Source of the DNA: Deltaproteobacteria bacterium
GTDB taxonomy: Bacteria; JADJOY01
Reading direction: 5' to 3'
Assembly (NCBI GenBank): GCA_016713535.1
Contig: JADJOY010000017.1
Coordinates: forward strand, 34,436 to 98,435
Length of the DNA stretch: 64,000 bases
Positions 1 through 41,500 of this stretch are shown here, piece after piece. Each line of letters begins with the position of its first letter. The stretch's first letter is position 1. The notes under the pieces are model-generated. The model saw only the letters and a list, made by a program, of their open reading frames with translations, was not told the origin of the DNA and ran no database searches. The translations under genes and the position numbers were made by a program.

Positions 1-159
1 GCAAGCACGCCACGCGGTAGCCGTCCACCACCGCGGGCTCGACCACCAGATCGGCGGCGAAGCGCGCGAACGGGCCGTGGACGGCGTCCTCGCGCGGCAC
101 CACCCGCGCGACCAGCCGTGCGCCGGTGGCGGGGTCGGTGAGCGCCTCCAGGCACTCGA

Positions 160-1224
160 TCACGCGCGCGCGCGCGCTCGTAGTCGGGCGCCGGGGGCGA
201 CCGTCCCCTCGGCGTCGCGCCCGCGCACCTCGGAGCCGCACTCCGGGGGCGTAGTCGACCTCGTCGGCGACCGCGAGCGTGCGCGACCAGTCGATCGCCG
301 CGTAGCGGCCGGCCGACTCGAGGCGCGCCGCGGGGGCTCCGCCCGCGAACCGGAACGCGCGCTCCTGGAGGCGCGCCGGCAGCACGCGCAGGGCGAGCTC
401 GCGGAGCGCGCTCGCGGAGGCGGGACGCGCCGAGGTCGCGTCGCTCCGCCACGCGAGGAGCCCCGCCTCGGCGAGCGCGGCGTTGAGGTGGAGCGCGGTC
501 GTGGAGCTGCCCTGGAAGCCGTGGTCCGACACCACCGCGACCACCGCGTCAGGACCCGCCCGCTCGACGATCCGCCCGAGCCACGCGTCGAGGGAACGGT
601 GGATTCGCAGGATGGCGTCGCCGAGGGCGGAGCACGCGCGGCGTCGAAGCGCGGCGAGCGCGGATCGTGGAAGCGCCAGAAGTGGTGCGAGACCGTGTCG
701 GACTCGCCGAGCACCGCGACCAGCAGCGCGGGCTCGACCTCGCGCGCCAGGTCGAGCACCAGCGACGCCTTCTCGTGGAGGCCGACGAGCAGCCGGGTGA
801 GTGCCTGCTCGTGCCAACCCGGACCGATCGAGAGCTCTTGCACGTCGGCGAACCGGAAGCGCGCGTAGCGCTCGCGGCGCGCGCGCCACTCGCCGCGCGG
901 ATGGACGAAGGAGCGATCGATGCCGGTCGTGACCGGTCCGTCGAAGCCGGACACGAACACGCCCCGGATCGGGTCGGGCGGGTAGGTGCCGGGCACCGCG
1001 ACCACCACCGAGGCGAGCCCCTCGCGATCGAAGCGTCGCCACAGCGTCTCGCCACGGCGATCGCTCGCGGAGAGGAAGCGGATGGCGTGGCGGCCCGGGA
1101 CCGGCTGGGTGAAGTCGGTGATGCCGTGGCGCCCCGGGTTCACCCCGGTGAAGATCGAGGTCCAGGCCGGGAAGGTGGCCGGTGGCGTGGTCGACGCGAG
1201 CGGCCCCCACGCCCCGCGCGCCAT
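160..1224 (-). CDS. AlkP-superfamily type I phosphodiesterase/nucleotide pyrophosphatase (PF01663-like), no signal peptide; 5' end uncertain
   Basis: 354-aa ORF. TFPAWTSIFTGVNPGRHGI matches the PF01663 core motif. The conserved N-terminal motif RLVVVGWDGADPEL lies in-frame upstream of the ATG at 1224, but there is no ATG/GTG/TTG before the upstream gene stop. Only a CTG at 1380 is available, overlapping that stop as CTGA. Confidence 0.75.
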   Translation of the reverse strand: MARGAWGPLASTTPPATFPAWTSIFTGVNPGRHGITDFTQPVPGRHAIRFLSASDRRGETLWRRFDREGLASVVVAVPGTYPPDPIRGVFVSGFDGPVTTGIDRSFVHPRGEWRARRERYARFRFADVQELSIGPGWHEQALTRLLVGLHEKASLVLDLAREVEPALLVAVLGESDTVSHHFWRFHDPRSPRFDAARAPPSATPSCESTVPSTRGSGGSSSGRVLTRWSRWCRTTASRAAPRPRSTSTPRSPRRGSSRGGATRPRRVPPPRARSASSPCACCRRASRSARSGSRAEPPRRASSRPAATRRSTGRARSRSPTRSTTPPECGSEVRGRDAEGTVAPGARLRARARA

Positions 1225-1376
1225 GAGCCGCGCGAGGTTGGGGAGCTCGCCTTCGCGCGCCCAGCGGAACGCGAGCTCCGGGTCCGCGCCGTCCCAGCCG
1301 ACGACGACGAGGCGCGGCTTGCGCCCGTCGCCCTGCTCCGCGCGCCGAGCGCGCGGGCTCGAGCCGAGCGGGTCGC

Positions 1377-4300
1377 TCAGTGGTCTCCCTGCGCGTAGCC
1401 GAGCGACTCGAGGCGCTCCTTCTCGGCCGCGCTCATCTCCTGCTCGTGGCTCGCCTGCGCCGCGCCCTTCTGCGCGTCCTCGAGCTTGGTCGAGAGGAGC
1501 TGGCCGAGGCGCACCGCCGCTGCGGGCGGCTCGCCCGAGCGCAGCAGATCCTTCTGCTCGCCCGGGTCGGCGGCCAGGTCGTAGAACTCGCGCTCGGCGA
1601 GGCCGCGGGGGTTGTCGGGGTTGGCGGTGATCAGCTTCGAGGCGCCGGTGCGCAGCGACTGCAGGATATTCCCCTCGTGGTCGTTGTCGGCGACCGCCAC
1701 GCGGTCACCGTCCTCGGTGCCGAGGTCGATGCCCTGAAACGTGGCCGGCACGGCGATCCGAGCCCACGTGAGCAGCGTCGGCGCGACGTCGATCGTGCGC
1801 ACCACGTGGGTGTCGCGGGGACCGGGTGCGAACGAGGCCCCCGCGGGCGGCTTCACGATCAGCGGCACGTGCAGGGCTTCCTGGTAGAGCGTCTGACCGT
1901 GCCACCAGCCGCCGTGCTCCTGGAACTCCTCGCCGTGGTCGGAGGTGAGGACGATGCCGGTGCTCGAGCTCAGGCCCTTCCGGGTCATGTGGTCGAGGAG
2001 GCGCCCGATCTCGCCATCCATGTAGCGGACCTCGCCCAGGTAGGTCTCGTGGTAGAGCTTGGCCTTCGAGGGATCCGGGTTGTCCTCGCTGACGCGCGCG
2101 TAGGCCACGCCGTTCCACGGGTGGACGAAGAACGGGTCGTGCGGGTCCATGTAGTGGACGACCAGGAAGAAGGGCCCCTTCTCCGCGTTGGCGTCGAGCC
2201 ACCTCGCCGCCTCGTCGGTGACGACGTCGGCGGGCTGGTAGTAGTTGCGGACGTTCTTGCGGTTCGAGAGGTACTTCTCGTTCACCATCCGCAGGATCTG
2301 GTAGATGTTGAGCTCGCTCGAGAGCTCACGCGCGCCGAACAGGAAGTCGGGGGAGAGGTACGTGAAGCTCTCGAAGCCGCGGTCGAAGCCGTACTTGGCG
2401 GCGACGTTGAAGTTGTTCACGAACGCGCCGGTGCGGTAGCCGCTCGCCGCGAGCAGCTCGGCGACGGTCGGGAAGCCCTCGCGCGGCAGCAGGCTGTTCT
2501 TCTCGCGCGCGGTGTGGGTGGTCGGAATCAGGCTCGTGAAGAGCGACGCGAACGACGGGCGCGTCCACGACGCCTGGCTGTTCGACTGCTCGAACACGAT
2601 CCCCGCGTTGGCGATCGAGTCGATGTGCGGCGTGGGGTTGTCGGCCGCGCCGTAGGCGCCGAGGGCGTCGGCGCGCAGGGTGTCGACCACGATCAGCACC
2701 ACGTTCGGCGCTCCCTCGGGAGCAGCGCCGCCCTCGATCTCGCGGGTGATGGCGGGGAAGCCGGGGCGCGGGATCGCGAGCAGCGCGATCCCCGAGACGC
2801 CCACCAGCATCGCCGCGCTCGCCGCCGCGAGCTTCCCGGGGCGCCCCTCGGGATCGCGGCCGAAGAGCCGTCCCAGCAAGGCGCCGATCGCCATGCCGAC
2901 CACCGCGGCGAATGCGACCACGCCGAGCTGGACCACGATGCCCTTCGCCGACATCACCTTGAGCGACTCGTGGAACAGGTCGCGGAACACCCGGAAGCGG
3001 GTGAGCACGGTGCCGAGGGCGAAGATCACCGTGCCGGCGTGAAAGCCCGCGGTGGCGCGCCACTCGCTCACCTGCGCCAGCCACGGCGCGATCGCCGCGA
3101 GGCCGACGCCCGTGCCCGCGCCCATCAGCGCGCCCAGCACGCCATAGGCGAAGATCGCGTAGGGGAAGAGCGCCGGGTCGTGAGTCTCGCCGGACGCGCC
3201 CTGCAGCACGTAGGCGGCCTCGGCGATGCCGACCAGCGCGCCACCGACGATGCCGCCCGCGACCCCGGTGAGGATCAGGCCGAGCGGCGGCGGCGGCGGG
3301 CTCGCCGGCTCGCCGGGAGCGGCGCTGGAGCGGGCCGAGCTGTCGCCGTCCTCGCTCGTGGCACCCCACATCCCGGCCGAGCCCTCCGCGACGTCGGTGA
3401 GCTCGCGTCCGTCGACGCGCACGTACGCCGGCCGGTAGCCGCTGCGCCGCGACCACCACCAGAACACGCCGAACAGGGTCAGCGCCTCGGCGGCCCAGAA
3501 GCCGAGGGCGGCCGAGATGATCGACTGGCTCACGCCGATGTGCTTGGCGAGCAAGAGCGCCTGGACGATCTCGCGGACGCCTTCGCCGGCGATCGTGAAG
3601 GGGCTGATGACCGTGGCGAAGATCTGGATCGACGAGCCGAAGGTGATCGCCCAGAACTGGGCACCCTTGGCCCCCACCGCGAGCGCGGTCAGGTAGTACA
3701 TCGCGGCGGTGGTGAAGTGGACCAGAAAGCTGAGCACCAGCACCGCGACCAGCGTCCCCTTCTTGTCGCGGTACGCCGCCGCCGCGCGGTTCACCCGCGA
3801 GATGAAGCCCTCGATCTTGCCGCGCCCGGGCAGCGGCACGCGGTCGAGGAAGAACTGGATCACCTGGGGATAGAAGAGGATCGCGAGGAACACCGCGATC
3901 GCGCCCACCGCCACCGGCACCGTGACGCCGACCACCATGCCGGCATGGTCGCCGAGGATGTGGTAGCCGAACGGCAGCGCCACCAGGAACGTGAGGAAGA
4001 TGCCGATGACGCCGAACACCTTCTCGATCGCGGTGGCGGCGGTCGCCTCGATGCCGCGCCGCGAGTAGAAGGCCGCGTCCCACAGCTTGTAGCCGTCGAG
4101 GCCGATGGTGGACGGCAGAAAGGTGCCGAGGAAGCGCCCCACCAGGAACGTGCCGAAGGTGTGCCGCCAGAACGGGAACTCGATGCCCTGGCCGAGCAGC
4201 AGGAGCTGCCAGCGGTACATGCTGGCGAGGACGCCCACCATCTTGAGCGCCGCGGCGAGCAGGCAGAACACCACGAACGTGCCGATGGAGATCTGCGGCA

Positions 4301-4688
4301 GGTAGGCGCGGATCGCCTCGAAGGTGGTGATCTTCGCGATCGGCGCGAGTCGCCCGCTGCGCCCGTCGGCGAGCTTGACGGTCGCCCCCTCGGGGAGGCG
4401 CACCGCGGTGGAGTCGATCAGGACCGTGCGCGCGTCGCTCACGGTGCCCGTGCCGTGGCCCAGGTAGGTCAAGGGCTCGCCGCTCGGGACCTCGACCTTG
4501 CCGGCGCCGTGGACGTTGACGGTGACGCGATCCCGCACCGGGATCTGGTGCATGAAGAGCAGGTAGAAGGCCCCGACGGTGACGACCGCCTTGAACGACA
4601 CCGTGATCGTCGAGCGCACACCCGACGGCAGCCACTGCCACGCCGCGCGGATCGCACCCCAGAGAGTTCGTTGAGCTGGCTGCACCAT
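1377..4688 (-). CDS. Polytopic membrane protein: N-terminal flippase-like / LPG-synthase-TM-like multi-TM domain fused to C-terminal sulfatase (PF00884-like) domain
   Basis: 1103-aa ORF. Many hydrophobic helices at residues ~110-640. C-terminal VVDTLRADALGAYG ... LTSDHGEEF sulfatase motifs. High GC3 coding signature. Confidence 0.8.
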   Translation of the reverse strand: MVQPAQRTLWGAIRAAWQWLPSGVRSTITVSFKAVVTVGAFYLLFMHQIPVRDRVTVNVHGAGKVEVPSGEPLTYLGHGTGTVSDARTVLIDSTAVRLPEGATVKLADGRSGRLAPIAKITTFEAIRAYLPQISIGTFVVFCLLAAALKMVGVLASMYRWQLLLLGQGIEFPFWRHTFGTFLVGRFLGTFLPSTIGLDGYKLWDAAFYSRRGIEATAATAIEKVFGVIGIFLTFLVALPFGYHILGDHAGMVVGVTVPVAVGAIAVFLAILFYPQVIQFFLDRVPLPGRGKIEGFISRVNRAAAAYRDKKGTLVAVLVLSFLVHFTTAAMYYLTALAVGAKGAQFWAITFGSSIQIFATVISPFTIAGEGVREIVQALLLAKHIGVSQSIISAALGFWAAEALTLFGVFWWWSRRSGYRPAYVRVDGRELTDVAEGSAGMWGATSEDGDSSARSSAAPGEPASPPPPPLGLILTGVAGGIVGGALVGIAEAAYVLQGASGETHDPALFPYAIFAYGVLGALMGAGTGVGLAAIAPWLAQVSEWRATAGFHAGTVIFALGTVLTRFRVFRDLFHESLKVMSAKGIVVQLGVVAFAAVVGMAIGALLGRLFGRDPEGRPGKLAAASAAMLVGVSGIALLAIPRPGFPAITREIEGGAAPEGAPNVVLIVVDTLRADALGAYGAADNPTPHIDSIANAGIVFEQSNSQASWTRPSFASLFTSLIPTTHTAREKNSLLPREGFPTVAELLAASGYRTGAFVNNFNVAAKYGFDRGFESFTYLSPDFLFGARELSSELNIYQILRMVNEKYLSNRKNVRNYYQPADVVTDEAARWLDANAEKGPFFLVVHYMDPHDPFFVHPWNGVAYARVSEDNPDPSKAKLYHETYLGEVRYMDGEIGRLLDHMTRKGLSSSTGIVLTSDHGEEFQEHGGWWHGQTLYQEALHVPLIVKPPAGASFAPGPRDTHVVRTIDVAPTLLTWARIAVPATFQGIDLGTEDGDRVAVADNDHEGNILQSLRTGASKLITANPDNPRGLAEREFYDLAADPGEQKDLLRSGEPPAAAVRLGQLLSTKLEDAQKGAAQASHEQEMSAAEKERLESLGYAQGDH

Positions 4689-4825
4689 CGGTCGGGGGTC
4701 TCCGGGAACCAGGTGGTGGGTCGAGACGCGGTCGCGTCGTGGGCGCCCGTCCGCCGGGCGGGGTCAGGTCGGGTTCGGACGAGCGCGCGGCGGCGGTGAT
4801 TCGACCGCGGCCGCGCGTACGACGA

Positions 4826-6853
4826 TCACAGGATCGGCTTGCCGTCCATGTTCGCGGGCACCGCCACGCCGAGGCGCTTCAGCGCGGTCGGGCCGATGTC
4901 GACGATGCCGGGGCTCTTCGACTGGATCGGCACGCTGGCGAACACCACGCCCTGGGTGTCCTTGGGGTCGGAGGAGGAGTGGTCGCCGCTCCACTTCTTC
5001 TCGTTGGTGACCACGACCTCCTGGGTCATCCCGCCGAGGATCGACTTCCAGTCGGTGCGATAGCCCTCGACGAAGGCGACCTGCAGGTCGGGCGCCTTGG
5101 CGGCGGCGTCGCCGGTGAACGACTTGTCGCCCCGGAACACACCCGCGACCGCCTTGGTGTTGGTCTTGGGATCGACCAGCGCGCCGAGCTTGGCGGAGAT
5201 CTCGGTGACGAGCTTGTCGTACTCCTCGCCCTTGGCGACGATGCCGTTCTTCTCGCGTCCGGCGAGGTTCACGTAGATCTGCCCGGTGCCGAACGCGTAC
5301 GCCTTGGTTTTCGTCCACTCGGCGTCGAGCAGGAAGTCTCCGTTCGGCATGTCGGCGGGCTTCACGGCGTCGCCGCAGCCCTTGCCCTTCAGGGTGAGGA
5401 AGCAGTTCTGCACCAGCCACGTGTTGAGGTTCACGCCACGGCGGAACGAGTGGAAGCCGTGGTCCGAGATCACGATCAGCGTGTCCTCGGGCTTGAGCAC
5501 GGCTTGCACCTTGCCGACGAACGCGTCCATGCGCCGGTAGGCCTCGCGGATCGCGTTGCCGTAGCGCTTGGCTAGCGCGGCGTCGTACTCCGGGTGGCCG
5601 GTGTCGAGCAGGCGATAGAAGAGGTGCGAGATGCGGTCGGTCGCGGTGAAGGCCGAGATCACCAGATCGAACGGCTGCGCGAGGGCGTCGATGGTCTTCT
5701 GCTCGCGCTCCTCGACGATCGAGTAGACGTCCTGGAGGAAGGTCTCCTCGTCGACGCCGTAGTTGTCGGCGTTGAGCGCGGAGGTGTCCTCGACCCAGCC
5801 GACGGTCTTGAACACGCCCTTCTTGGCGAGCTCGGCGCCGTAGCCGTTGGGAGAGGTGACGGGGATCGGCGGGTTGCGCGGGTCCATGCTCACCGGCGCC
5901 AGGTAGATCCGGACCTCCGGCGCCACCGAGAGGACTCGCGCGCGGGTCACGCCGTGCTCGACCAGCGCGTCGCCGAACGCGAACGACACGTCGTACCAGC
6001 CTGTCCACGCGCCCGCCGCGGCCTCCTGGGCTTGGCCGCCGATCGTGAGACGGACCTTGCCGCCGCCCAGCTTCTCGACCTTCACCGGTACCTTGAGGCG
6101 CGGGCGAGGCTTGGTGGTGGCGCGCGCGTCGACCGGTCCCTCGAGGGTGGACTCGGCGACGTCGTTCTTGAACTCGAGGCGGAACGGCACGCCACCCGAG
6201 ATCGGCTTCGCCGAGTCCGCGGGCTTCACGTCGCTGCCGTAATACGCGTAGCTCGAGTTGGTCATGCGGAGGTCAGGGACGCCGAGCCCCGAGAGCATCC
6301 GGCTCTGCTCGTTGAGCGGGTCGGGCGGGAAGGTGTAGGGCACCGACAGCACCGCCACCGCGAGGCCGGCGTCGGACGCGACCTTCCAGAACGGTGGACC
6401 CTGGCGCGGGTTGGTGGCGCGCGGCGGGGTCGCGAGCTTGCCGTCGGGGGTGAACGTGGGATCGACGTAGTCGTTGGTGCCGACTCCGGGCAGGTAGCTC
6501 GACGGGTCGCGCTTGATGAAGTCGAAGATGCCGTGCTTTCCGGGATTGGTGCCGGTCGCGAAGCTCGCCCACGCCACCGGCGACTGCGGGGGCAGGGTCG
6601 ACTCGAGCGGCGCGAACGCTCCCGACTGCGCGAGGCGCTTCAGGTTCGCGAAGTCTCCGTCCTTGGCCCACTTCTGGTAGAGCTCGGGGTCGACGCCGTC
6701 GAAGCCGAGGATCACCACCCGTCCACCGGGACGCTTGCCGGCGTGGGCCGGCGTGGAACTCACGACGACGGCGACGAGACCCGCCACCGCCACCAGCGCG
6801 GCCGCGGCGGCCACGCGCGATCGCGACGGAAGCGAGGGCGAGCGCAACCTCAT
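4826..6853 (-). CDS. Secreted AlkP-superfamily type I phosphodiesterase/nucleotide pyrophosphatase (PF01663-like) with ~250-aa C-terminal extension
   Basis: The ORF track extends to 7018, but the start is at ATG 6853. It has an AGGAGG RBS and a signal peptide MRLRSPSLPSRSRVAAAAALVAVAGLVAVVVSSTPAHA. Motifs VVILGFDGVDPEL and SFATGTNPGKHGIFDF. Confidence 0.8.
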   Translation of the reverse strand: MRLRSPSLPSRSRVAAAAALVAVAGLVAVVVSSTPAHAGKRPGGRVVILGFDGVDPELYQKWAKDGDFANLKRLAQSGAFAPLESTLPPQSPVAWASFATGTNPGKHGIFDFIKRDPSSYLPGVGTNDYVDPTFTPDGKLATPPRATNPRQGPPFWKVASDAGLAVAVLSVPYTFPPDPLNEQSRMLSGLGVPDLRMTNSSYAYYGSDVKPADSAKPISGGVPFRLEFKNDVAESTLEGPVDARATTKPRPRLKVPVKVEKLGGGKVRLTIGGQAQEAAAGAWTGWYDVSFAFGDALVEHGVTRARVLSVAPEVRIYLAPVSMDPRNPPIPVTSPNGYGAELAKKGVFKTVGWVEDTSALNADNYGVDEETFLQDVYSIVEEREQKTIDALAQPFDLVISAFTATDRISHLFYRLLDTGHPEYDAALAKRYGNAIREAYRRMDAFVGKVQAVLKPEDTLIVISDHGFHSFRRGVNLNTWLVQNCFLTLKGKGCGDAVKPADMPNGDFLLDAEWTKTKAYAFGTGQIYVNLAGREKNGIVAKGEEYDKLVTEISAKLGALVDPKTNTKAVAGVFRGDKSFTGDAAAKAPDLQVAFVEGYRTDWKSILGGMTQEVVVTNEKKWSGDHSSSDPKDTQGVVFASVPIQSKSPGIVDIGPTALKRLGVAVPANMDGKPIL

Positions 6854-7124: not shown

Positions 7125-7826
7125 ATGGCTACAGCGGCACGCAACGTGGATTCGGCGCGCAACGCCAAGGGCGCGCAGCCGATCCGCATCTTCCTCGCCG
7201 ACTCGCAGGACCTGCTCCGGGAGGGGGTCAAGCGGATCCTCGCGCAGCGCGGAGGCTTCGAGGTCGTCGGTGAGGCCGGCGACGGCCAGACCGCGCTCGC
7301 GCAGGTGCTCAAGACCAAGCCCGACGTGGTGCTGATCGACGTCATGATGCCGGTTCTCAACGGCGTCGACGCCGCGCGCGAGATCCTGCGTGAGCTGCCC
7401 AAGACCAAGGTGTTGGCACTCACGATCTACGCGAGCGACGAATACATCCACCAGATCCTCGACGCCGGCGCCATCGGCTACATCCTCAAGGACGCCAAGA
7501 GCGAGGACCTGGTGCGCGCGCTCGAGCTGGTGAGCGACGGGATCCCGTTCTTCTCGCCGGCGATCAGCAAGACCGTGGTGGCCGGCTACCTGAAGCGCCG
7601 CGGCGAGTCGAAGAAGCCCGCACCCTACGATCAGCTCACACCGCGCGAGCGGCAGGTGCTTCAGCTCATCGCGGAGGGGCGGCGTAACCGCGAGATCTCG
7701 AGCCTGCTCCACCTCTCGATCAAGACGGTCGAGGTGCATCGTGCGCACATCATGGAGAAGCTCAAGGCGCGCAGCATCGCGGACCTGGTGCTGATCGCCA
7801 TCGGCAAGGGCATCGTGAAGCTGTAG
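7125..7826 (+). CDS. NarL/FixJ (LuxR-type HTH) family response regulator
   Basis: Receiver motifs (DD...VVLIDVMMP...K) plus C-terminal LuxR HTH (LTPRERQVLQLIAEG...SIKTVEVHR). GAGGT RBS upstream. Confidence 0.9.
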   Translation: MATAARNVDSARNAKGAQPIRIFLADSQDLLREGVKRILAQRGGFEVVGEAGDGQTALAQVLKTKPDVVLIDVMMPVLNGVDAAREILRELPKTKVLALTIYASDEYIHQILDAGAIGYILKDAKSEDLVRALELVSDGIPFFSPAISKTVVAGYLKRRGESKKPAPYDQLTPRERQVLQLIAEGRRNREISSLLHLSIKTVEVHRAHIMEKLKARSIADLVLIAIGKGIVKL

Positions 7827-8376: not shown

Positions 8377-8445
8377 CACGCTTTCAGATCATCGCGACAA
8401 TGCAATGAAACCGGGCCGATATGGCCCTTCCTGGCCCCGCGAAGC

Positions 8446-12508: not shown

Positions 12509-13351
12509 TCAGCCCTCGTACACCCAGCGGCGCGCGACGGCGAGTAGCGCGCGCTGGAACGCGCTCCACTCCATCGGCTTGCCGAGGCGAGCCGGATCGG
12601 GGCGCAGGCTCGCGGCCACCGACGACTTGGTCTCCTCGTTGCCGTTGATGTCGTGGGAGGCGCGGCTCTCCCCCTCGAAGGGGTCGTGGAACGGCACGCC
12701 GAGCCGCTCGCCGAGCTCGCGCACCGTCGACTCCGGTCGCGACACGAGGTCCTCGTAGCGGACCCTGCGGTAGTGGGGGCGCGGCCGAAGAGACGCTCGC
12801 GCGAGCAGGTTGGTGCGCAGGTACTTGCCCACGATCGCGTCGAGGAAGCCGTGCTTCTTGCGGCGCATCCGCGACGCCACGTGTCCCTCGGGCGAGCGCA
12901 CCAGGTGGATCACGTAGACGTCCTGTGGATAGGCCCGCACCAGCGGCAGGAGGCGCCACACCGACTTCGAGTTGTCGAGGACGACTTCGGCGCCGGTCAC
13001 GCTCTCGATCGCCTCGAAGAGCTCGCGGTTGGCCGCGCCGAACGGGTTCTTGCCGCGGCTCGAGAGCCGCCCACTGAGCGCGCGCACCCACTCCAGACCG
13101 CGTTCCGACGAGACCCGCGAGATCGGCACCATGTCGAGCTCGGTGGTGCGCGCGATGCGCCAGAACACCGGACCCCACACCGGGCACTCGAGCGCGTGCA
13201 GCCCACAGCTACAGCGGCGACCGGTGGGATGCCAGTAGCGATCGAGGTACTGCAGCTCGCCGGCCGAGAAGATCCGCGGGTTCTGGTTGAGGATGCGCGT
13301 GAGCAGCGTCGAGCCGGTGTGCGTGCACGCGACGACGTAGGCGAGTTTCAT
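12509..13351 (-). CDS. sulfotransferase family protein (Stf0-like, P-loop THTGSTLL)
   Basis: 280-aa ORF with N-terminal PAPS-binding-like motif ACTHTGSTLLTRIL and RxxS motif. Confidence 0.7.
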   Translation of the reverse strand: MKLAYVVACTHTGSTLLTRILNQNPRIFSAGELQYLDRYWHPTGRRCSCGLHALECPVWGPVFWRIARTTELDMVPISRVSSERGLEWVRALSGRLSSRGKNPFGAANRELFEAIESVTGAEVVLDNSKSVWRLLPLVRAYPQDVYVIHLVRSPEGHVASRMRRKKHGFLDAIVGKYLRTNLLARASLRPRPHYRRVRYEDLVSRPESTVRELGERLGVPFHDPFEGESRASHDINGNEETKSSVAASLRPDPARLGKPMEWSAFQRALLAVARRWVYEG

Positions 13352-13551: not shown

Positions 13552-13902
13552 ATGTTGCAGACACGCCTCATGGCGGTCGTCCTGCTCACCTCGGTGTTCG
13601 GCTGCGCAGCCGCGCGGCCATCGGGCGAGCAGATGAATCAGGCCATCTCGGCCATCCACGACGCGGAGCAGGCCGACGCCGTATCGATGGCACCCGTACC
13701 GATGCGGACGGCGCGCGAGGCCTACGCGAAAGCGGAAGAAGCCGTACGCCAGCAGGAGGAGCTCGAGGCCTCGCGGCTCGCCGACCAGGCGACGGTCGAC
13801 GCCAAGCTCGCCAGTGCCACCGCCCGTGCGACGCGCGCCGAGCGGAGCCTGGATGAAATGCGCCGCAGCCAGGACGCGCTGCGCCAGGAAGGGAGTCGCT
13901 GA
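13552..13902 (+). CDS. DUF4398-like lipoprotein (typical partner of OmpA-family proteins)
   Basis: GGAGA RBS; lipoprotein signal MLQTRLMAVVLLTSVFGC; coiled-coil A/E-rich body; stop 4 nt before the next gene. Confidence 0.65.
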   Translation: MLQTRLMAVVLLTSVFGCAAARPSGEQMNQAISAIHDAEQADAVSMAPVPMRTAREAYAKAEEAVRQQEELEASRLADQATVDAKLASATARATRAERSLDEMRRSQDALRQEGSR

Positions 13903-13905
13903 ACC

Positions 13906-14976
13906 ATGAAGACCACTCGATGCACCTTTCCGAATTCGCGCACTCCGCGCGCCGCGCGAGTCGTCCGCGGTCTCGTTCTCACGGTGGGCGCGGCGGTCGC
14001 GCTCGCGGGCTGCGGCCCGAAGCACAACCCGGCCCTCGACTCGCTGCGCGCCGACGTGGTGCACGCCAAGGCCGATCCGAACCTGGTGCGGCGCGCCCCG
14101 GCGGCCCTCGACGACACCGTGAAGGCGCTCGACCGCGCCGAGACCGCCGAGCGCCGCGGCGCCGACCCTGTCGACAAGCAACACACGATCTACCTCGCGC
14201 GTCGTCGGCTCGAGATCGCGCAGGCGCAGTCCGCGGAAAAGGCCGCGGAAGAGGAGATCGCGAAGCGCGGCACGCAGCGCGACACGGACGTCGCGAATGC
14301 GCGTGCGCGCGGCGCCGACCAGCGCGCGGCGAGCGCCGAGGGCGAGCTGCGGGCGACCCAGCGCTCGCTCGACCAGCAATCGGGCGAGGTGCGCGCCGGT
14401 GCGGCGGCCAACGCCGCGCTCACCGATCGCGCCCACGACGCCGAGGACAGCGCCGCGACCGCGCGCCTGAACCTGAAGGAATCGCAGCAGACCGTCGCGC
14501 AGCAGAGCGCCGACGCACGGGTGGCGGATCGCCAGCGCGCCGCCCTCGAGCTCGACCTCGCCCGGCTGCGCCACGAGCTGAACGCGCGGGAGACCGAGCG
14601 CGGGCTGCTCTTCACGTTCGGCAACGACGTGCTCTTCGACGTCGGCCGCTCCGACATCAAGCTCGGCGCACGCGAGCGGCTCGCTCGTCTGTGCGAGTTC
14701 CTCAACGCCTACCCGGACCGGTTCGTCCAGGTCGACGGCCACACCGACAGCACCGGCGTCATGGCGTCCAACCTGACGCTCTCCCGGGCCCGCGCCGACG
14801 CGGTTCGCGGCCTCATGGTCCACGAAGGGATCGCGCCCGACCACGTCGTCTCGCAGGGCTTCGGCTCGAGCTCGCCGGTGGCGTCGAACGACTCCAGCGC
14901 GGGGCGCCAGCAGAACCGCCGGGTCGAGATCGTGCTGCTCAACGCGAGTCGCAGCTCGGCGGACGCGAGCCGGTAA
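13906..14976 (+). CDS. OmpA-family lipoprotein (long coiled-coil N-terminal region plus C-terminal OmpA peptidoglycan-binding domain)
   Basis: Lipobox LAGC; C-terminal TDSTG...NRRVEIVLL OmpA_C motifs. Confidence 0.85.
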   Translation: MKTTRCTFPNSRTPRAARVVRGLVLTVGAAVALAGCGPKHNPALDSLRADVVHAKADPNLVRRAPAALDDTVKALDRAETAERRGADPVDKQHTIYLARRRLEIAQAQSAEKAAEEEIAKRGTQRDTDVANARARGADQRAASAEGELRATQRSLDQQSGEVRAGAAANAALTDRAHDAEDSAATARLNLKESQQTVAQQSADARVADRQRAALELDLARLRHELNARETERGLLFTFGNDVLFDVGRSDIKLGARERLARLCEFLNAYPDRFVQVDGHTDSTGVMASNLTLSRARADAVRGLMVHEGIAPDHVVSQGFGSSSPVASNDSSAGRQQNRRVEIVLLNASRSSADASR

Positions 14977-15041
14977 AGCCTCACCAGCGAGCGCAGACCC
15001 GGACACCGACCAACTTCGACGAAAACAAGAGGAGAGAGACC

Positions 15042-15236
15042 ATGAACCAGGACCAGATCAAGGGCACGTGGGACCAGCTCAAGGGCAAGGCCAAGCGCAT
15101 CTGGGGCGAGCTCACCGACGACGACTTCATCAAGGCCGAAGGGTCGGCGGACAAGCTCTACGGCGTCATCGAGAAGCGCTTCGGCGACAAGAAGGAAGCG
15201 ATCAAGGACCGGATCGACAAGCTCACCGTGAGCTGA
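15042..15236 (+). CDS. CsbD-family general stress protein
   Basis: MNQDQIKGTWDQLKGKAKRIWGELTDDDF... is the canonical CsbD sequence; GAGGAG RBS. Confidence 0.8.
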   Translation: MNQDQIKGTWDQLKGKAKRIWGELTDDDFIKAEGSADKLYGVIEKRFGDKKEAIKDRIDKLTVS

Positions 15237-15329
15237 CGCAGCGCGCGCCCGGGGCGTCGCCAGTGGCGGTTCTCCGGGGCTGCGCGGCCCCGTCGTCTCA
15301 CCCCATTCCAACCAGCAAGGACCAGCTCA

Positions 15330-16415
15330 ATGAAGAACGCATGGAAACGCAGCATCGTCGCAGCGGGCCTCGCCGGCCTCCTGCTGGCGGACGTCGTATC
15401 GGCGAAGACCGCGCCGTCCGACTCCTGGATCACCACCAAGGTGAAGATGCAGCTCCTCACCGCGGAAGACGTGAGCGGCACCGACGTCAACGTGGACACT
15501 CGCGACGGGCTCGTGACCCTCCAGGGACCGGTCAGCACCGCAGCGGAGAAGGCGAGGACGGTCAAGCTGGCCCGCGGCATCGAAGGGGTCCGCGACGTCC
15601 GCGACCTCCTCGAGATCGTGCCGCAGAGCAAGGCCTCCGTGATCGAGGCCAAGGACGACGTGATCCGCGACAGGCTCTCCAAGGACCTGAACGACGCCGC
15701 GCGGCTCCAGGACAGCGCCATCGCCATCCAGTCCGTCACCAACGGCACCGTGGTTCTCGGCGGCAAGGCCAAGACGCTCGGCGATCACGCGGAAGCGCTC
15801 AGGCTCGCGCGTCGGACGCCCGGCGTCCGCAAGGTCGTGAGCCAGATCGTGAGCCCCGACACGCTCGGCGACGAGGACCTGTGGTTCCCGGAGGTGAAGG
15901 CGGAGAAGGTCGCCGAGGCCGAGGCGAAGGATGCCCAGGTCGCGGCGAAGGGAGCGAGCGGCCAGGTGTCCGATAGCTGGATCACCACCAAGGCCAAGCT
16001 CGCCCTGTGGACCTCGCCTGACATCACCTCGGACGAGATCAACGTCGACACGCGGGACGGCGTCGTGACGCTGTTCGGCACCGTCACGCCGGACGCGGTC
16101 CGCGAGGTCGCGGTCCAGAAGGTCCGCGCCGTCGACGGCGTCAAGGACGTGAAGAACCAGCTCCAGGTGGTCTCGGTCACGACGGAGAAGGCCGTCGAGC
16201 ACGCGGACGACGCCATCAAGAGCGCCGTGACCTCCCGCCTCGCCGAGCGCGGGGATCTGAACGCGGCGAAGATCGAGGTGTCGGTGGCGAAGGGCGTCGT
16301 CCAGCTCAAGGGCACCGTCGCCAGCCAGGAGCAACGACTGACGGCGTTGTCGCAGGCGCGGATGGTGGCCGGCGTGCGCGCGGTGATCGACGAGCTGCAC
16401 ATCCAGATGAAGTGA
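15330..16415 (+). CDS. OsmY-like periplasmic protein with four BON domains
   Basis: Signal peptide; repeated SDSWITTKVK...VDTRDG.VTL.G.V units. Confidence 0.85.
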   Translation: MKNAWKRSIVAAGLAGLLLADVVSAKTAPSDSWITTKVKMQLLTAEDVSGTDVNVDTRDGLVTLQGPVSTAAEKARTVKLARGIEGVRDVRDLLEIVPQSKASVIEAKDDVIRDRLSKDLNDAARLQDSAIAIQSVTNGTVVLGGKAKTLGDHAEALRLARRTPGVRKVVSQIVSPDTLGDEDLWFPEVKAEKVAEAEAKDAQVAAKGASGQVSDSWITTKAKLALWTSPDITSDEINVDTRDGVVTLFGTVTPDAVREVAVQKVRAVDGVKDVKNQLQVVSVTTEKAVEHADDAIKSAVTSRLAERGDLNAAKIEVSVAKGVVQLKGTVASQEQRLTALSQARMVAGVRAVIDELHIQMK

Positions 16416-21332: not shown

Positions 21333-21545
21333 TCCATGCGGTCGACCTCGATCACCGTGGGACCACCCGGCGCCGGAGGCGGACGGCCCTCGGCGCTGGT
21401 TCGAAACGCCTATCTCCAGCGCCGCGCGCGCTGATCGAGGACAGCCATGAGGTTCCGTCGGACTCGTCGGATGATCTCTACCAACTCGTGCCCGACGACA
21501 GGGCTCTGGACACGCAGCGGCCCGTGGAGTGAGGGCGCCGGGCGG

Positions 21546-22157
21546 ATGGTGCGCCGCCTGCTCGCGATCGGGTTGCTCGTCGGTCTGACCGGGGTGCTCG
21601 GTGCGACCCGCTCCGAGGCTGCGGCCGACGAGCCCTCGGCGTCGGAGGTCGTGAGGCGAATGACCGACGACGTCGTCGGGTTGCTCAACGACGGCACGAA
21701 GTCGGCCGCGGAGCGGCGCCGCGGGATCGAGCGGATCGCCGAGGCGAACATCGACTTCGACACGCTCTCGAAGCTGGTGCTGACGCAGTGGTGGTCGCGG
21801 CTCTCGCCGGCCGATCAGCGCGAGTTCGTGGCGCAGTTCCAGCAACATCTCGCTGTGACGTACGGCCGCAACTTCGAGCACTTCCACGACGAGACCGTGG
21901 AGGTGCTGGGAGATCGCGCCGTGTCCGACGGCGACTGGAAGGTGCTGACGCGGATCGTCCGCCCGAGCGCCCAGAGCGTGACGGTGAACTACCGGCTGCG
22001 GAAGATCGGCGAGCAGTGGCGCATCATCGACGTGCTGATCGAGGGCGTGAGCCTGGTGTCGAACTTCCGCTCCCAGTTTCACGCGATCCTGGCCGACGGT
22101 GGCGCACCGCAGCTCCTCCAGGTGCTGCGAGACAAGAACGCGGTTGGGACGAGCTGA
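21546..22157 (+). CDS. MlaC/Ttg2D-family periplasmic phospholipid-binding protein
   Basis: Signal peptide MVRRLLAIGLLVGLTGVLGA; toluene-tolerance Ttg2D-like body. Confidence 0.75.
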   Translation: MVRRLLAIGLLVGLTGVLGATRSEAAADEPSASEVVRRMTDDVVGLLNDGTKSAAERRRGIERIAEANIDFDTLSKLVLTQWWSRLSPADQREFVAQFQQHLAVTYGRNFEHFHDETVEVLGDRAVSDGDWKVLTRIVRPSAQSVTVNYRLRKIGEQWRIIDVLIEGVSLVSNFRSQFHAILADGGAPQLLQVLRDKNAVGTS

Positions 22158-27439: not shown

Positions 27440-27604
27440 ATGAGCGTGAGCCTGGTCGTGATCGTGTTGCTGGCGTTGCTTCTCGTCGGTGCCTTTCCCA
27501 CGTGGCCCCACAGCCGAGGCTGGGGCTACGGACCGTCGGGTGGTCTGGGGCTGGTACTGCTGATCGTCGTGATCCTCATGCTCACCGGGACCCTTCACCT
27601 CTGA
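27440..27604 (+). CDS. DUF3309 small membrane protein (55 aa; below the ORF-track size cutoff)
   Basis: MSVSLVVIVLLALLLVGAFPTWPHSRGWGYGPSGGLGLVLLIVVILMLTGTLHL matches the DUF3309 pattern (PTWPYSRGWGY); high GC3. Confidence 0.7.
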   Translation: MSVSLVVIVLLALLLVGAFPTWPHSRGWGYGPSGGLGLVLLIVVILMLTGTLHL

Positions 27605-27669
27605 GCCCGCGCGGCCGTCGCCGAGCGGATGGGTGACGGTCGACGGACGGCTCACCCGGAAGAATCCTG

Positions 27670-29306
27670 ATGAAGATCGAGTTGATCGCTCCCAAGAACC
27701 CGGAGTCGTTCTGGACGTTCGACCGCGTCCTGCCCACGATCTCCAAGAGCGCCACGTTCCCGAACCTGGCGCTCCCGACCTCGCGGCGCTCACTCCGCCC
27801 TGGCACGACGTCGTGCTCCGGGACGAGAACGTCGAGGCGATCGACTTCGACACCGACGCCGACTGGATCGGGCTCACCGGCTACATCGTCCACAAGGCGC
27901 GGATGTTCGAGATCATCGACGCGTTCAAGGCGCGCGGACGGCGCATCGCGGTGGGGGGGCCGTTCGCGACGCTGTGCCCCGAGCAGCTCCGCGACAAGGT
28001 GGACGTACTCTTCGTGGGCGAGAGCGAGCGCACCTGGCCACGCTTCCTGTCGGACCTCGCGGCGGGTGAGCCGAGGGCCGAGTACCACGCCGACGCTCTC
28101 CCCGAGCTCGACGACGCGCCGATCCCGCGCTTCGACCTGCTGAAGCTGAATCGCTATCGCAGCATGGCGGTGCAGTTCGCTCGCGGCTGTCCGTACACCT
28201 GCGAGTTCTGCGACATCATCGTCATGTACGGGCGCAGGCCGAGGACCAAGCCGGTGGCGCGCCTCGTCGCGGAGGTCGACGCGCTCCATGCGCTGGGCGC
28301 CCACGACGTGTTCGTGGTGGACGACAACTTCATCGGCAACAAGAAGGCCGCCAAGGCTCTGCTCCGCGAGCTCGTGGGGTGGCAGGTGGCGCACGGGTAC
28401 CCGGTGGAGTTCATGACCGAGGTCTCGCTCAACCTCGCCCAGGACGACGAGCTGCTGCGGCTGATGCACGACGCCAACTTCACGTCCGTGTTCATCGGCA
28501 TCGAGTCACCGCGGGTCGCGAGCCTCGAGGAGACCGGCAAGACCCAGAACATCCGCGCCGATCTGCTCGGATCGGTCCGCAAGATCCAGGACGCCGGCAT
28601 CGAGGTGATGGCGGGGATGATCGTGGGCTTCGACAACGACGACGTCTCCATCTTCGAGGAACAGTTCCGGTTCATCCAGGACGCTCGCATTCCGGTGTCG
28701 ATGACGGGCTTGCTGAATGCGCTACCGCAGACGCCGCTACGCGAGCGCCTGCTGACCGCGGGCCGGCTCGACGACGAGTACACCGGTGACCAGTTCGTGT
28801 TCTCGAACGTGATCCCGGCCGCGATGTCGCGGCTCGAGCTCTATGAGGGCTACAGGGACCTGCTCGAACGGCTCTACGATCACTCGAACTACCGCAGGCG
28901 TGCGATGGCCTTCCTCCGCGACCAGGGGCCGGAAAAACGCGTGCGTGTGTCCGCGGGCGCACACGAAGTGCGGATCTTCTTACGCGTGCTGTGGACGTGC
29001 GTGCTCCTCGCGCCGCCGCGGCGCGCGGCGATGACGCTGCGCATGCTCGGCGAGACGTTGCTGCGCAGGCCCAGCTCGATGCGCAAGGCGGTGGTGCTGG
29101 CGCTCATGCACAAACACCTTCACGAGTACGCAGTCTTCGTCCGAGCCGAGCTCGATCGGATCATCGTCGGCCTGCGCGCCCCGGCACCGCCACCGGTCGC
29201 CGTCGCGGAGCTCGTCGGTCATCGTCTGCTCCCTCAGGACCGGTTGGCGGGGCGCCGGTCGCCAGATCCGGCGAGCGGGCACGTGGTCGACGTTCCGGCC
29301 GGGTAA
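27670..29306 (+). CDS. B12-binding radical SAM protein with DUF4070-type C-terminus; apparent -1 frameshift near 27780
   Basis: N-terminus MKIELIAPKNPESFWTF is in frame 27670; the rest is in frame 27633 (B12-binding region, FARGCPYTCEFC CxxxCxxC, DUF4070-like tail). The frame changes inside a C run (ccgacctcg). Confidence 0.8.
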
Positions 29307-29439
29307 CCCGGTTGGCGGGGCGCGGCCAGGACTCCGTCACGGCGCGCGGAGCGTGGACGGACCCGTGGCGCCGGCGGTGAGATCCGCCTCGATTCCAGGG
29401 AGATCCGTGGCGTTGGCAGACCTCCATGGCCGCTTGCTC

Positions 29440-29453
29440 GGCACGTCGTTTGC
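29440..29453 (+). promoter_or_regulatory. sigma-54 type promoter GGCACgtcgtTTGC about 80 nt upstream of the alpha/beta hydrolase gene
   Basis: tcGGCACgtcgtTTGCgct. Confidence 0.55.
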
Positions 29454-29534
29454 GCTCGCGAACGGGTGGCTCTGGCCGCGCGGCCCGGTCTCGCGAGTGA
29501 GAGCGGCCCGGTAGCGCCGAGGGGGGGCTCATCC

Positions 29535-30653
29535 ATGCAACGCAGAAGCTCGCAGGCTCTCGACGGGATCGCGAGCTTTCTCGGAAGGCTCGTCATCCGG
29601 AGCGGAGCCGCTGCCGAGAATACGCTCGCGCAGCTCGATGCCTACCGCGGTCGCACCGTCGAGGAGCTGTTCCCGGCACCGCCGGGGCTGCCCGACGTCA
29701 CGGTCGCGCGCGCCTGGAAGGTCGGGCCTTTCGAGAGCCTTCACCTATCGTTCCCGTCGGAATACCAGCCCATCGCGCCCGACTTCCGGCAGCGCCACGG
29801 CGACGAGTACCGCCGCAATCAACAGGTCTCGGTGCGGTGGATCCGTCACACGCGCGGCGGCCCACGGCCCACGCTCATCTTCCTGCATAGCTGGATGCAA
29901 CCCGATACCGCGCTCGAGGAGCTCACGATGTTGCCGGTGCTCGCCGGTCAGCTCGGGCTCCACGTGGCCCGGCTCGACCTCCCGTACCACGGACGGCGCA
30001 AGCCTCTGGGTTCCCGGTTCGGGGGCGAGTACTTCTGGACCGCCGACCTGGTGCGTACCGTCGAAGCCATCGGACAGAGCGTGTGGGACACGCGGCGCCT
30101 GGTCTCGTGGCTCTCCGCTCAGGAGGGCGCGCCCGTCGGGATCATGGGGTTGAGCCTCGGCGGGATGATGGCGCTCTACACCGCGTGCGCCGACCCACGC
30201 CTCGCGTTCGCGATCGGCGTAGCGGCCCACCTCGATCTCGCCGGCGTCCTCGGCGACGCCTCCATCCTGAAGCGCATGCGCGGCGAGCTCGAGAGCCACG
30301 GCTGGAGCCCCGCCGACGTGAGTGCCTACATGGCGCTGGTGGGCATCGCGGACCTGAAGCCCGTGATCCCGCCCCAACGGATCTTGCTGGTCGCGGGCAA
30401 GTACGACCGGCTCCTCAGCGCCGATCGCACGGAAGCGCTGTGGAAGCGCTGGGGCGAGCCGCCCATCCACTGGTTTCCGGCGGGGCATCTGGGGATCTTC
30501 ACCCAGCTTCCGGGCACCATCGCCGTGGTTCGCCGATTCCTCGAGGGGCTCGGTCTCGGGCGGTCGCGACGCAACGGTGAGGCGGGCTCCACGTCTGTAG
30601 CGCCTACAGATCCGTTGTCACCCCCATTCAACGACGTTCCGCCGAGCGCCTGA
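29535..30653 (+). CDS. alpha/beta hydrolase fold protein
   Basis: GLSLGG nucleophile elbow (GxSxG), HSW oxyanion region; start ATG 29535 (MQRRSSQ). Confidence 0.75.
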   Translation: MQRRSSQALDGIASFLGRLVIRSGAAAENTLAQLDAYRGRTVEELFPAPPGLPDVTVARAWKVGPFESLHLSFPSEYQPIAPDFRQRHGDEYRRNQQVSVRWIRHTRGGPRPTLIFLHSWMQPDTALEELTMLPVLAGQLGLHVARLDLPYHGRRKPLGSRFGGEYFWTADLVRTVEAIGQSVWDTRRLVSWLSAQEGAPVGIMGLSLGGMMALYTACADPRLAFAIGVAAHLDLAGVLGDASILKRMRGELESHGWSPADVSAYMALVGIADLKPVIPPQRILLVAGKYDRLLSADRTEALWKRWGEPPIHWFPAGHLGIFTQLPGTIAVVRRFLEGLGLGRSRRNGEAGSTSVAPTDPLSPPFNDVPPSA

Positions 30654-31133: not shown

Positions 31134-31577
31134 ATGAACGGTTACCACGAGCCCTATGAATCCCTCGCACCGCCGGACCGCGATCTCCATCGCGCGCTGC
31201 TGAGCTTGAAGGAAGAGATCGAGGCCGTGGATTGGTACCACCAGCGGGTCGTGACCTGCACCGATCAGGACCTCGGGCAAGTGCTCGCGCACAACCGCGA
31301 CGAGGAGATCGAGCACGCGTGCATGACGCTCGAGTGGGTGCGCCGCACGAGTCCGGCGTGGGACCTCGCGCTCAGGAAGTTCGTGTTCACCGAGGGCTCG
31401 ATCACGCAGAAGGAACGTCCCTCCCCATCGGCGCCCCTCGCCGCGTCGCGCGGACACGCCGAGCCGCCGCGAGGTGACCTCGCCATCGGGCGTTTGCACG
31501 ACCCGGTCGAACCGAAAGGGCGGCACGATTCGCGGGCCGCCGGCGCTCCCGAGCGTGCGCTTTGCCCCACCCCATGA
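31134..31577 (+). CDS. encapsulated ferritin-like protein (EncFtn) with C-terminal cargo-loading peptide
   Basis: HEPYESL...LLSLKEEIEAVDWYHQRV...AHNRDEEIEHACMTLEWVRR closely matches the EncFtn fold; the tail contains GDLAIGRL, similar to encapsulin targeting peptides. Confidence 0.85.
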   Translation: MNGYHEPYESLAPPDRDLHRALLSLKEEIEAVDWYHQRVVTCTDQDLGQVLAHNRDEEIEHACMTLEWVRRTSPAWDLALRKFVFTEGSITQKERPSPSAPLAASRGHAEPPRGDLAIGRLHDPVEPKGRHDSRAAGAPERALCPTP

Positions 31578-31588
31578 CGAGGACACCC

Positions 31589-37350: not shown

Positions 37351-41058
<3,708 letters not shown>

Positions 41059-41149
41059 CGTGCCGCTTCCGTGAAAAGGCGAATGGATCGCCCGGGAGGG
41101 GCGATCGGGTGGATCGAGCAAGAATAGCGGAATCCGCGCCCCGAATGCT

Positions 41150-41500
41150 CGGCCCACGGCGCGCAGCGCGACGCCACGAGCGAAGCGAGCGCCTCGGGGG
41201 TGGCCGCGAACAGTAATCGACGGACCGTCGATGCAACTCCTGCGCGTATCGCCGGCGCGGCAGGAGCCGCGCCCTCCGACGGGGAGGGGGGCTGGAGCCC
41301 GCTCGAAGCGCAGAGCCACTCGGCCGGCTCGCGCCACGCACCGACCCGTCACACGGCGCGTCGCAGCGCGACGCCACGAGCGAAGCGAGTGCCTCGGGGG
41401 TGGCCGCGAACAGTAATCGACGGACCGTCGATGCAACTCCCGCGCGTATCGCCGGCGCGGCAGGAGCCGCGCCCTCCGACGGGGAGGGGGGGGCTGGAAC
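41150..41500. repeat. tandem direct duplication (2 x ~140 nt, about 98% identical, 200-nt period) of a hairpin-rich element between the FN3 lipoprotein gene and metH
   Basis: Unit 1 at 41161-41296 and unit 2 at 41361-41498 differ at two substitutions plus a G-run length. Each unit carries three inverted repeats (ATCGACGG-A-CCGTCGAT; CTCCTGCGCG...CGCGGCAGGAG; CCCTCC-GACG-GGGAGG). Confidence 0.7.

Follow-up and report, generated by a model that had tools for sequence, protein, structure and literature searches.

A PF03706–sulfatase-fold fusion protein encoded with PF01663 enzymes in a conserved operon of uncultured bacteria

Introduction

Several polytopic membrane enzymes with a PF00884 domain modify the bacterial envelope: LtaS, EptA/MCR-1, OpgB and BcsG are head-group transferases with a Thr or Ser nucleophile. 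In LtaS, EptA/MCR-1 and OpgB, the phospho-head group of a membrane lipid is first bound covalently to a Thr and then handed to an envelope acceptor. To our knowledge, all polytopic PF00884 enzymes characterised so far are head-group transferases. Here we describe an operon from a deltaproteobacterial genome (Deltaproteobacteria bacterium JADJOY01, assembly GCA_016713535.1) in which a protein that fuses a flippase-like domain to a PF00884 domain is encoded between two enzymes of family PF01663. It lies in a stretch of 64,000 nucleotides, hereafter the window (contig JADJOY010000017.1, positions 34,436 to 98,435); all positions below are those of the window, and loci of relatives are cited by our own numbers (L006 and so on).

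The flippase-like part belongs to PF03706 (PplT), described as a general lipid-translocator domain that is fused or genetically linked to many lipid-modifying enzymes (10.1101/2022.03.11.483950); the text of that survey does not mention a fusion with a domain of the alkaline-phosphatase superfamily. The gpgSDF operon, which encodes a GT4 enzyme, a deacetylase and a predicted flippase of PF03706, makes a modified lipid (PMC12713373). Our literature search found no description of a fusion between PF03706 and a sulfatase-like domain or of an operon of the present composition.

Results

Three consecutive genes form a conserved operon

The region has about 70% G+C, and its three genes, A, B and C, follow one another on the (-) strand:

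4826..6853, (-) strand: gene A, exported PF01663 enzyme (NPP/alkaline-phosphatase superfamily), 675 aa; Pfam E 1.3e-34, 120.8 bits against a cut-off of 23
1377..4688, (-) strand: gene B, polytopic membrane protein, 1103 aa, fusion of a PplT/MprF-flippase-like domain with a sulfatase fold; Pfam and AlphaFold2 (AF2)
1..1380, (-) strand: gene C, cytoplasmic PF01663 enzyme, cut by the left edge of the window; first conserved residue at 1323; Pfam and alignment

Genes A and B are real: third-position GC is 0.91-0.96 in both open reading frames (ORFs), and the ratio of nonsynonymous to synonymous substitution rates (dN/dS) against three relatives is 0.16-0.30. They are separated by 137 nt without a terminator-like site on the (-) strand. 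A reading made from the DNA letters alone (the sequence-only reading) had proposed PF01663, PF03706 plus PF00884, and again PF01663 for the three products, and all three assignments hold in a Pfam profile search. Together the genes make up a conserved operon that is present in many uncultured lineages and on which our literature search found no earlier study.

Protein B fuses an MprF-like membrane domain to a five-helix sulfatase-fold module

Protein B is composed of the following parts, all encoded on the (-) strand:

4326..4547, (-) strand: beta domain of ten strands, residues 48-121; AF2 secondary structure and alignment, present in the 'long' subtype only
3498..4319, (-) strand: flippase-like domain PF03706 (LPG_synthase_TM/PplT), residues 124-397, about eight helices; Pfam
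2769..3287, (-) strand: five transmembrane helices, residues 468-640; AF2 and hydropathy
1449..2708, (-) strand: catalytic sulfatase-fold domain (PF00884), residues 661-1080, predicted periplasmic; Pfam, alignment and fold
2562..2564, (-) strand: ACG codon of Thr709, which occupies the formylglycine (Cys/Ser) position of sulfatases

The PF03706 profile matches residues 124-397 (E 4e-14, 53.1 bits against a gathering score of 33.4) and PF00884 matches residues 661-977 (E 4e-46), with a weaker match to PF16347 (SGSH_C), which bears out the proposal of an 1103-aa fusion of a flippase-like polytopic region with a sulfatase fold at 1377-4688. The full-length AF2 model (mean predicted local distance difference test score, pLDDT, 76) begins with a helix at residues 22-45. 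The beta domain (48-121) sits between this helix and the flippase-like domain, which contributes about eight helices between residues 135 and 413 and carries the invariant motifs GRFLGTFLPSTxGLDGY and SPFTIAGEGxRE. A disordered, K/R-rich linker (412-467, mean 6.4 K+R) leads to the five helices (468-497, 507-537, 541-572, 581-609 and 619-638, in agreement with hydropathy) and then to the catalytic domain.

In a Foldseek search of the PDB with an AF2 model of residues 1-465 (pLDDT 78), the six best matches are all MprF (9j8s, 9goe, 7duw, 7f47, 9j8q and 6lvf; probability 1.0) and the next match has a probability of at most 0.14. That MprF alone is matched with confidence supports the flippase-like assignment. 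A HMMER profile of the same residues finds no match among PDB sequences even at E 10: sequence similarity to the solved MprF structures is too low for HMMER, and MprF is recovered by fold alone. Protein B thus resembles MprF and PplT proteins such as E. coli YbhN and P. aeruginosa GpgF in having PF03706 above the gathering score and MprF as its sole confident fold match, and it shares with gpgSDF the genetic linkage of a PF03706 domain to lipid- or glycolipid-modifying enzymes. Unlike MprF, it has no aminoacyl-phosphatidylglycerol synthase domain, the defining domain of MprF proper, in a Pfam scan, and its membrane domain is fused to a domain of the alkaline-phosphatase superfamily predicted to be extracytoplasmic. 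Protein B is a PplT-domain protein, not MprF.

For topology and residue conservation we used an alignment of 24 homologues, down to 41% identity with the window protein. Loop charges put the loops 273-309 and 412-467 in the cytoplasm; since the K/R-rich linker is cytoplasmic and five helices follow it, the catalytic domain is predicted to lie outside the cytoplasmic membrane. At locus L087, soluble paralogues of this domain have lipoprotein signal peptides, consistent with export. The charges around the beta domain are ambiguous as to its side.

The C-terminal half is thereby laid out like LtaS, EptA/MCR-1 and OpgB: five transmembrane helices come directly before the predicted extracytoplasmic PF00884-fold domain, and the predicted nucleophile is a Thr at a metal site formed by Asp/Glu and an Asp-His pair. 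Protein B differs from these enzymes in its additional N-terminal MprF-like domain, in the beta domain of the long subtype, and in a catalytic domain whose sequence stands much nearer to S1 sulfatases and phosphonate monoester hydrolases (PMH). Curated family models give 15.6 bits for EptA (cut-off 561) and 19.7 bits for LapC/YejM (cut-off 825), and neither cut-off is reached.

The catalytic domain has Thr in place of formylglycine

A profile of protein B and 23 homologues finds S1 sulfatases and PMH as the best solved relatives (E ~1e-43), and these are also the best PDB matches of the AF2 model in Foldseek (target TM-score ~0.65). Conservation is high around the expected active site: D669, S707-W708-T709-x-P711, H725, H850, D917-H918 and H930-G931 are invariant. 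The metal ligands D669 and D917-H918 are therefore kept, as the sequence-only reading had suggested checking, and the N-terminal metal Asp, the Asp-His pair and two His also occur in S1 sulfatases and PMH (choline sulfatase, BT4656 and RlPMH, for example).

The remainder of the sulfatase site differs. Thr709 aligns with the formylglycine position of 7oz8 (S-T-P-A-R) and 5g2v (S-G-P-S-R); it is invariant in the 24 homologues (S-W-T709-R-P-S-F in the window, S-W-T-K/R-P in the family) and is the predicted nucleophile. The C/S-x-P-x-R motif is absent from all 24 and replaced by T-x-P-x-hydrophobic, with Phe or another hydrophobic residue for the Arg. The Lys of 'GKWH' in 5g2v aligns with Asn758, and the Lys C-terminal to the D-H-G segment in 7oz8 and 5g2v aligns with the invariant Gly931. 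S1 sulfatases and PMH are moreover soluble, whereas protein B is embedded in the membrane.

The substrates of the known formylglycine maturases are Cys and Ser, not Thr, and within this superfamily a Thr nucleophile characterises enzymes of phosphoryl transfer, NPP, LtaS and EptA among them. With Thr at the formylglycine position, the "arylsulfatase A-like enzyme" annotation of the B family is, judged by these residues, misleading, and the sulfatase fold noted by the sequence-only reading does not make protein B a sulfatase. That protein B is nevertheless a membrane-anchored, formylglycine-dependent sulfatase would fit its best sequence and fold matches and the SGSH_C match; given a Thr that known maturases do not convert, the loss of the motif in 24 of 24 homologues and the Gly931 and Asn758 replacements, we regard this as extremely improbable. 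The manganese arylsulfatase EfAS was considered as a precedent for a Thr-type sulfatase and rejected, as EfAS uses Cys61.

The flanking PF01663 enzymes have complete two-metal sites

Both flanking products belong with the NPP/PhnA branch of PF01663: they match the family at E ~1e-35 and have its two-metal ligand set, D...T/S...D-x3-H...D-H...H. They are set apart from it by large uncharacterised inserts in proteins of 550-675 aa and in that only about the first 100 residues align to any solved structure (E ~1e-12). PDB sequence searches with single sequences of protein A and of an intact C orthologue returned no match.

Protein A begins with a sequence that resembles a Sec signal peptide (residues 1-39 predicted, MRLRSPSLPSRSRVAAAAALVAVAGLVAVVVSSTPAHA|GK), which together with the Pfam match upholds the earlier description of a secreted PF01663-type phosphodiesterase at 4826-6853. 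Its active-site motifs are GFDG (D52), PPQ-S91-PVAW, D406-x3-H410, S-D464-H465-G and G-D-H625; on the basis of these motifs, Ser91 is at the nucleophile position and D52, D406, H410, D464, H465 and H625 are equivalent to the metal ligands. Orthologues in L087, L012 and L015 have Tat-type or lipobox signals. The family is very large (more than 3000 homologues) and mostly exported. Its members are annotated merely as "alkaline phosphatase family protein" or, at JGI, 'predicted AlkP superfamily phosphohydrolase/phosphomutase', and our literature search found no characterised A-type member.

The third gene had been placed at 160-1224. Its assignment to PF01663 stands; these coordinates do not, owing to a single missing base:

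629..630, (-) strand: single-base deletion in gene C relative to L006 (window 'GCT CC- GCC', L006 'GCG CCG GCG')

The N-terminal half of gene C is in the frame of the ORF 160-1224 and the C-terminal half is in another frame, which runs past window position 1; because the deletion at ~629 shifts the frame, the stop at 160 does not belong to the true frame. When the two halves are spliced, the protein matches PF01663 (E 4e-35, 122.5 bits, cut-off 23) and has the motifs VGWDG, PPA-T-FPAW, SDTVSHH and VSDHG. In an alignment with PhnA, T46 of the C family falls on the nucleophile T64, and D7, D205, H209, D263, H264 and H467 are invariant throughout the family. As the sequence-only reading had observed, the gene has no ATG, GTG or TTG start: the sole candidate is a CTG at 1378-1380 that overlaps the stop of gene B, and the same holds in L006, the closest relative (gene B 91% identical). 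The orthologues in L007 and L008 start with ATG.

The reading frame is uninterrupted in L006 and L008, and dN/dS is 0.20-0.33, close to the values for A and B, so purifying selection has acted on gene C. Its lesions either arose recently or stem from assembly errors. L007, an 84% identical relative, has an independent frameshift in gene C at another place (~13850-13946). We considered pseudogenisation, given two genomes without a canonical start and two with independent frameshifts, and judged it unproven in view of the dN/dS values and the intact frames.

C-type and PDE3-type PF01663 partners have no signal peptide. With A-type enzymes exported, enzymes of this superfamily are therefore found on both sides of the membrane.

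The fusion is widespread and occurs in two subtypes

A protein search for homologues of B gave 473 matches at E ≤ 1e-5, and the fusion architecture is the same in the best 120 of them. At least 324 species-level genomes (species representatives) carry a relative, so the domain arrangement is not the unusual one for which it had been taken. The best 80 loci among these genomes are all from metagenome-assembled genomes (MAGs) or uncultured Candidatus organisms, and none is from a cultured organism. Their labels include Myxococcota/Deltaproteobacteria, CSSED10-310, Zixibacteria, Fermentibacteria, Gemmatimonadota, Binatia, Thermodesulfobacteriota, Hydrogenedentota and Nitrospiraceae. Some loci, among them L039, L053 and several 'Spirochaetales' ones, come from MAG records under the names Klebsiella pneumoniae, Enterobacteriaceae or Spirochaetales and encode a protein ~44% identical to the Myxococcota type; these labels probably reflect mis-binning or mislabelling.

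Protein B occurs as a long subtype, which has the beta domain and includes the window protein, and a short subtype of ~1025 aa. PF01663 genes flank the long subtype at 20 loci, which belong to several phyla, and the downstream partner is an orthologue of gene C (31% identity over the full length). The co-conservation that the sequence-only reading had proposed as a check is thus seen in distant lineages. Glycosyltransferases are often near the long subtype: a GT4 gene lies directly 3' of gene C in the window's clade, L087 has a GT2 and a GT4 near the fusion, and a Fermentibacteria locus has a Wzc-like kinase, GT2, an epimerase and GT1 nearby. L087 also encodes four further PF01663 proteins and, at 1-6008, five tandem Thr-type sulfatase-like lipoproteins, in which S-Y-T-R... 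replaces C-x-P-x-R and whose genes adjoin six PF01663 genes, the GT2 and the GT4; the five lipoproteins are, by sequence, the soluble paralogues of the B catalytic domain mentioned above.

The short subtype is found mostly in Myxococcota-labelled MAGs and lacks a PF01663 partner. The genes that recur next to it are feoAB, gpsA and, at 31 loci, one for a conserved lipoprotein of ~290 aa; the others are housekeeping genes. The lipoprotein is encoded directly upstream of the fusion (L061 7999-8871 and 30 other loci), has no Pfam match save a weak SHOCT-like C-terminus, and may be a periplasmic partner of the short-subtype fusion.

This setting among housekeeping genes with a conserved lipoprotein partner would suit a non-catalytic role. 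PbgA/YejM has the same layout of five helices and a sulfatase fold and acts by binding rather than turnover, and protein B has a weak NCBIfam match to LapC/YejM/PbgA (E 2e-4); it could likewise be a sensor or regulator of envelope lipid homeostasis that binds lipids or lipopolysaccharide. The invariance of the nucleophile Thr, all metal ligands and several His down to 41% identity argues for catalysis, and we consider a purely regulatory protein B very unlikely.

A tentative model: lipid translocation coupled to head-group transfer

Observed are the identities of the domains, a Thr where the nucleophile is expected, the retained metal ligands, the lost sulfatase residues, the number of helices and the co-conservation of the genes; from these we infer the topology, that the substrate is a lipid, that the reaction is a transfer and not a hydrolysis, and what A and C do. 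The reading that we tentatively put first, at somewhat below even confidence, is that protein B couples lipid translocation to periplasmic head-group transfer within an envelope-modification operon. The MprF/PplT-like domain would move a membrane lipid or a lipid-linked intermediate between leaflets, and the C-terminal module of five helices and alkaline-phosphatase-superfamily domain would work like LtaS, EptA or OpgB. A metal-activated Thr709 would attack the phosphodiester of a lipid donor to form a covalent phospho-head-group–enzyme intermediate, from which the head group would pass to an envelope acceptor, perhaps a glycolipid or glycan made by the glycosyltransferases encoded nearby in relatives; these could supply either the acceptor or a lipid-linked substrate. 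The fused flippase-like domain might bring the donor to the outer leaflet, carry the diacylglycerol by-product back, or do both. Exported A and cytoplasmic C, NPP/PhnA-like and with complete two-metal sites, would trim or recycle phosphoester intermediates on their own side of the membrane.

That the characterised polytopic PF00884 enzymes are head-group transferases supports this model, and the pairing of GT4 with PF03706 in gpgSDF is a precedent for it. It also fits the domain anatomy, as does the broader suggestion of the sequence-only reading, head-group remodelling of an envelope lipid or polysaccharide.

Several points weigh against it. It is hard to see where soluble A and C would fit into an LtaS-type scheme. 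The closest matches of the catalytic domain, in sequence as in fold, are S1 sulfatases and PMH rather than LtaS or EptA, and Thr-nucleophile enzymes of this superfamily can be plain hydrolases. The short subtype lacks conserved glycosyltransferase or PF01663 neighbours. The loop 564-582 is K/R-rich although the topology model puts it outside. Finally, genes for the synthesis of 3'-phosphoadenosine 5'-phosphosulfate (PAPS) occur with the fusion in one clade and suggest sulfur rather than phosphorus chemistry.

If hydrolysis is taken as the end point, protein B could be phospholipase C/D-like, cleaving head groups from outer-leaflet phospholipids for lipid remodelling or phosphorus scavenging. 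In that case the flippase-like domain would provide substrate or take diacylglycerol back, and exported A would liberate phosphate from the phosphoesters so released. The GT4 encoded next to the operon would build a glycolipid without phosphorus in their place, on the pattern of the PlcP-Agt pathway of marine bacteria. PF01663 includes the lipid phosphodiesterases autotaxin, NPP6 and NPP7; the A-type family is very large and mostly exported; a GT4 adjoins the operon in the window's clade and in L087; and the L087 fusion clusters with the five lipoproteins and with exported PF01663 proteins. The neighbourhoods examined contain no pho, pst or phosphate-regulon genes, though, several of the partner PF01663 proteins are cytoplasmic, and the regulator gene divergent from the operon is LuxR-type, not PhoB-type:

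7125..7826, (+) strand: response regulator with receiver and LuxR/GerE helix-turn-helix domains, divergent from gene A; position conserved in L001

We rate a hydrolytic protein B as unlikely. The response regulator itself is a possible regulator of the operon, a role that we suggest from its position.

The components of the operon are of familiar kinds, as is the chemistry that they probably perform. What is uncharacterised is their combination, the conserved partnership with PF01663 and, within the 'sulfatase' family, the Thr-type branch. Should the transfer model be right, lipid translocation and extracytoplasmic head-group transfer would be brought together in one polypeptide, steps that LtaA plus LtaS, or MprF alone, cover in other ways, and the B family would signal an envelope lipid or glycan modification not yet described. 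Members come from uncultured lineages that number in the hundreds, among them Myxococcota-type MAGs, Binatia, Zixibacteria, Fermentibacteria, Hydrogenedentota and CSSED10-310. The family defines a Thr-nucleophile branch within the 'sulfatase' family, and the automatic arylsulfatase A-like labels on its members inflate sulfatase counts in metagenomic surveys.

A PAPS-linked clade and the sulfotransferase of the window

One clade, which includes CSSED10-310, has the gene order PF01663 – ATP sulfurylase – PHP – PF01663 – APS kinase – PF01663 – fusion – PF01663. It was found at the six loci of the clade with enough upstream sequence: L002, L003/L011, L013, L014, L016 (partial) and L017. The operon occupies 746-12901 in L002 and 2469-14975 in L003. 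Its four PF01663 proteins are cytoplasmic, and its PHP protein has a 3',5'-nucleoside bisphosphate phosphatase as best match (E 2.5e-58) and is thus pAp-phosphatase-like. No classical sulfotransferase was called within 10 kb of the fusion in L002 or L003.

The window does contain a sulfotransferase gene, 6 kb from the operon:

12509..13351, (-) strand: sulfotransferase; PF13469 E 7e-14, PF00685 E 4.5e-4

The earlier description of this gene as a Stf0-like sulfotransferase was right about the activity class, and no Stf0 family is among its Pfam matches. The gene heads a same-strand run with lysA, dapF, dapA and dapB that ends at a terminator-like hairpin (8413-8427), and the opposite-strand response regulator lies between this unit and gene A. 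Beyond the window, only the close relatives L006 and L007 have a homologue in the vicinity of the fusion, and the 64-kb window has neither ATP sulfurylase nor APS kinase. As the gene sits in a separate unit, with synteny limited to L006 and L007 and no PAPS-synthesis genes in the window, a functional link between sulfotransferase and operon is unsupported. The region upstream of the sulfotransferase-lysA block has been rearranged: metH adjoins the sulfotransferase in L001 (1-1191) and is ~24 kb away from it in the window (37357-41985, (-) strand).

The PAPS-linked loci raise the question whether the system makes or processes a sulfated lipid or glycan, with PAPS as donor, an intermediate flipped by the N-terminal domain of protein B, and sulfate moved or removed by its Thr-type domain or by a PF01663 protein. 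ATP sulfurylase and APS kinase in the fusion operon of six loci, a PHP protein that resembles a 3',5'-nucleoside bisphosphate phosphatase, the lack of a called canonical sulfotransferase within 10 kb in L002 and L003, and a PF13469 gene that, in the window as in L006 and L007, lies 6 kb from the operon all point this way. Against this, protein B has neither the formylglycine motif nor the Lys residues that bind sulfate esters, the PAPS association is confined to one clade, the window lacks the two PAPS-synthesis genes, and its sulfotransferase is in the lysA-dap unit with its own terminator-like site. We know of no PAPS-dependent sulfotransferase in the alkaline-phosphatase superfamily, which also counts against sulfur chemistry. 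Overall we find it decidedly unlikely.

A more specific form, to which we give slightly less credence still, is that the fusion and its PF01663 partners are a sulfation pathway in which alkaline-phosphatase-superfamily enzymes replace canonical sulfotransferases: a Thr/Ser enzyme would take sulfate from PAPS via a covalent sulfo-enzyme and place it on a lipid or glycan, and protein B would flip and process the product. The link to PAPS genes in one clade is a concrete, testable lead to a possible new sulfation route, and the significance of the system would be much greater if it reflected sulfation by enzymes of this superfamily.

Other features of the window

An Rfam search gave no match anywhere in the window. 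ARAGORN called a 93-nt tRNA-Arg(TCG) at 52494-52586 (+), which lies within an ORF of high third-position GC on the opposite strand (51633-53030) and is probably a false positive. Other envelope genes at 13906-16415 (+) and 21435-22157 (+) encode an OmpA-family protein with DUF4398, a protein with four BON domains, and MlaC. An encapsulin shell gene (PF04454, E 4e-81) is found at 31478-32413 (+); 5' of it are a B12-binding radical SAM gene (27573-29306) and then a gene for an ABHD18-like hydrolase (29307-30653), all on the (+) strand.

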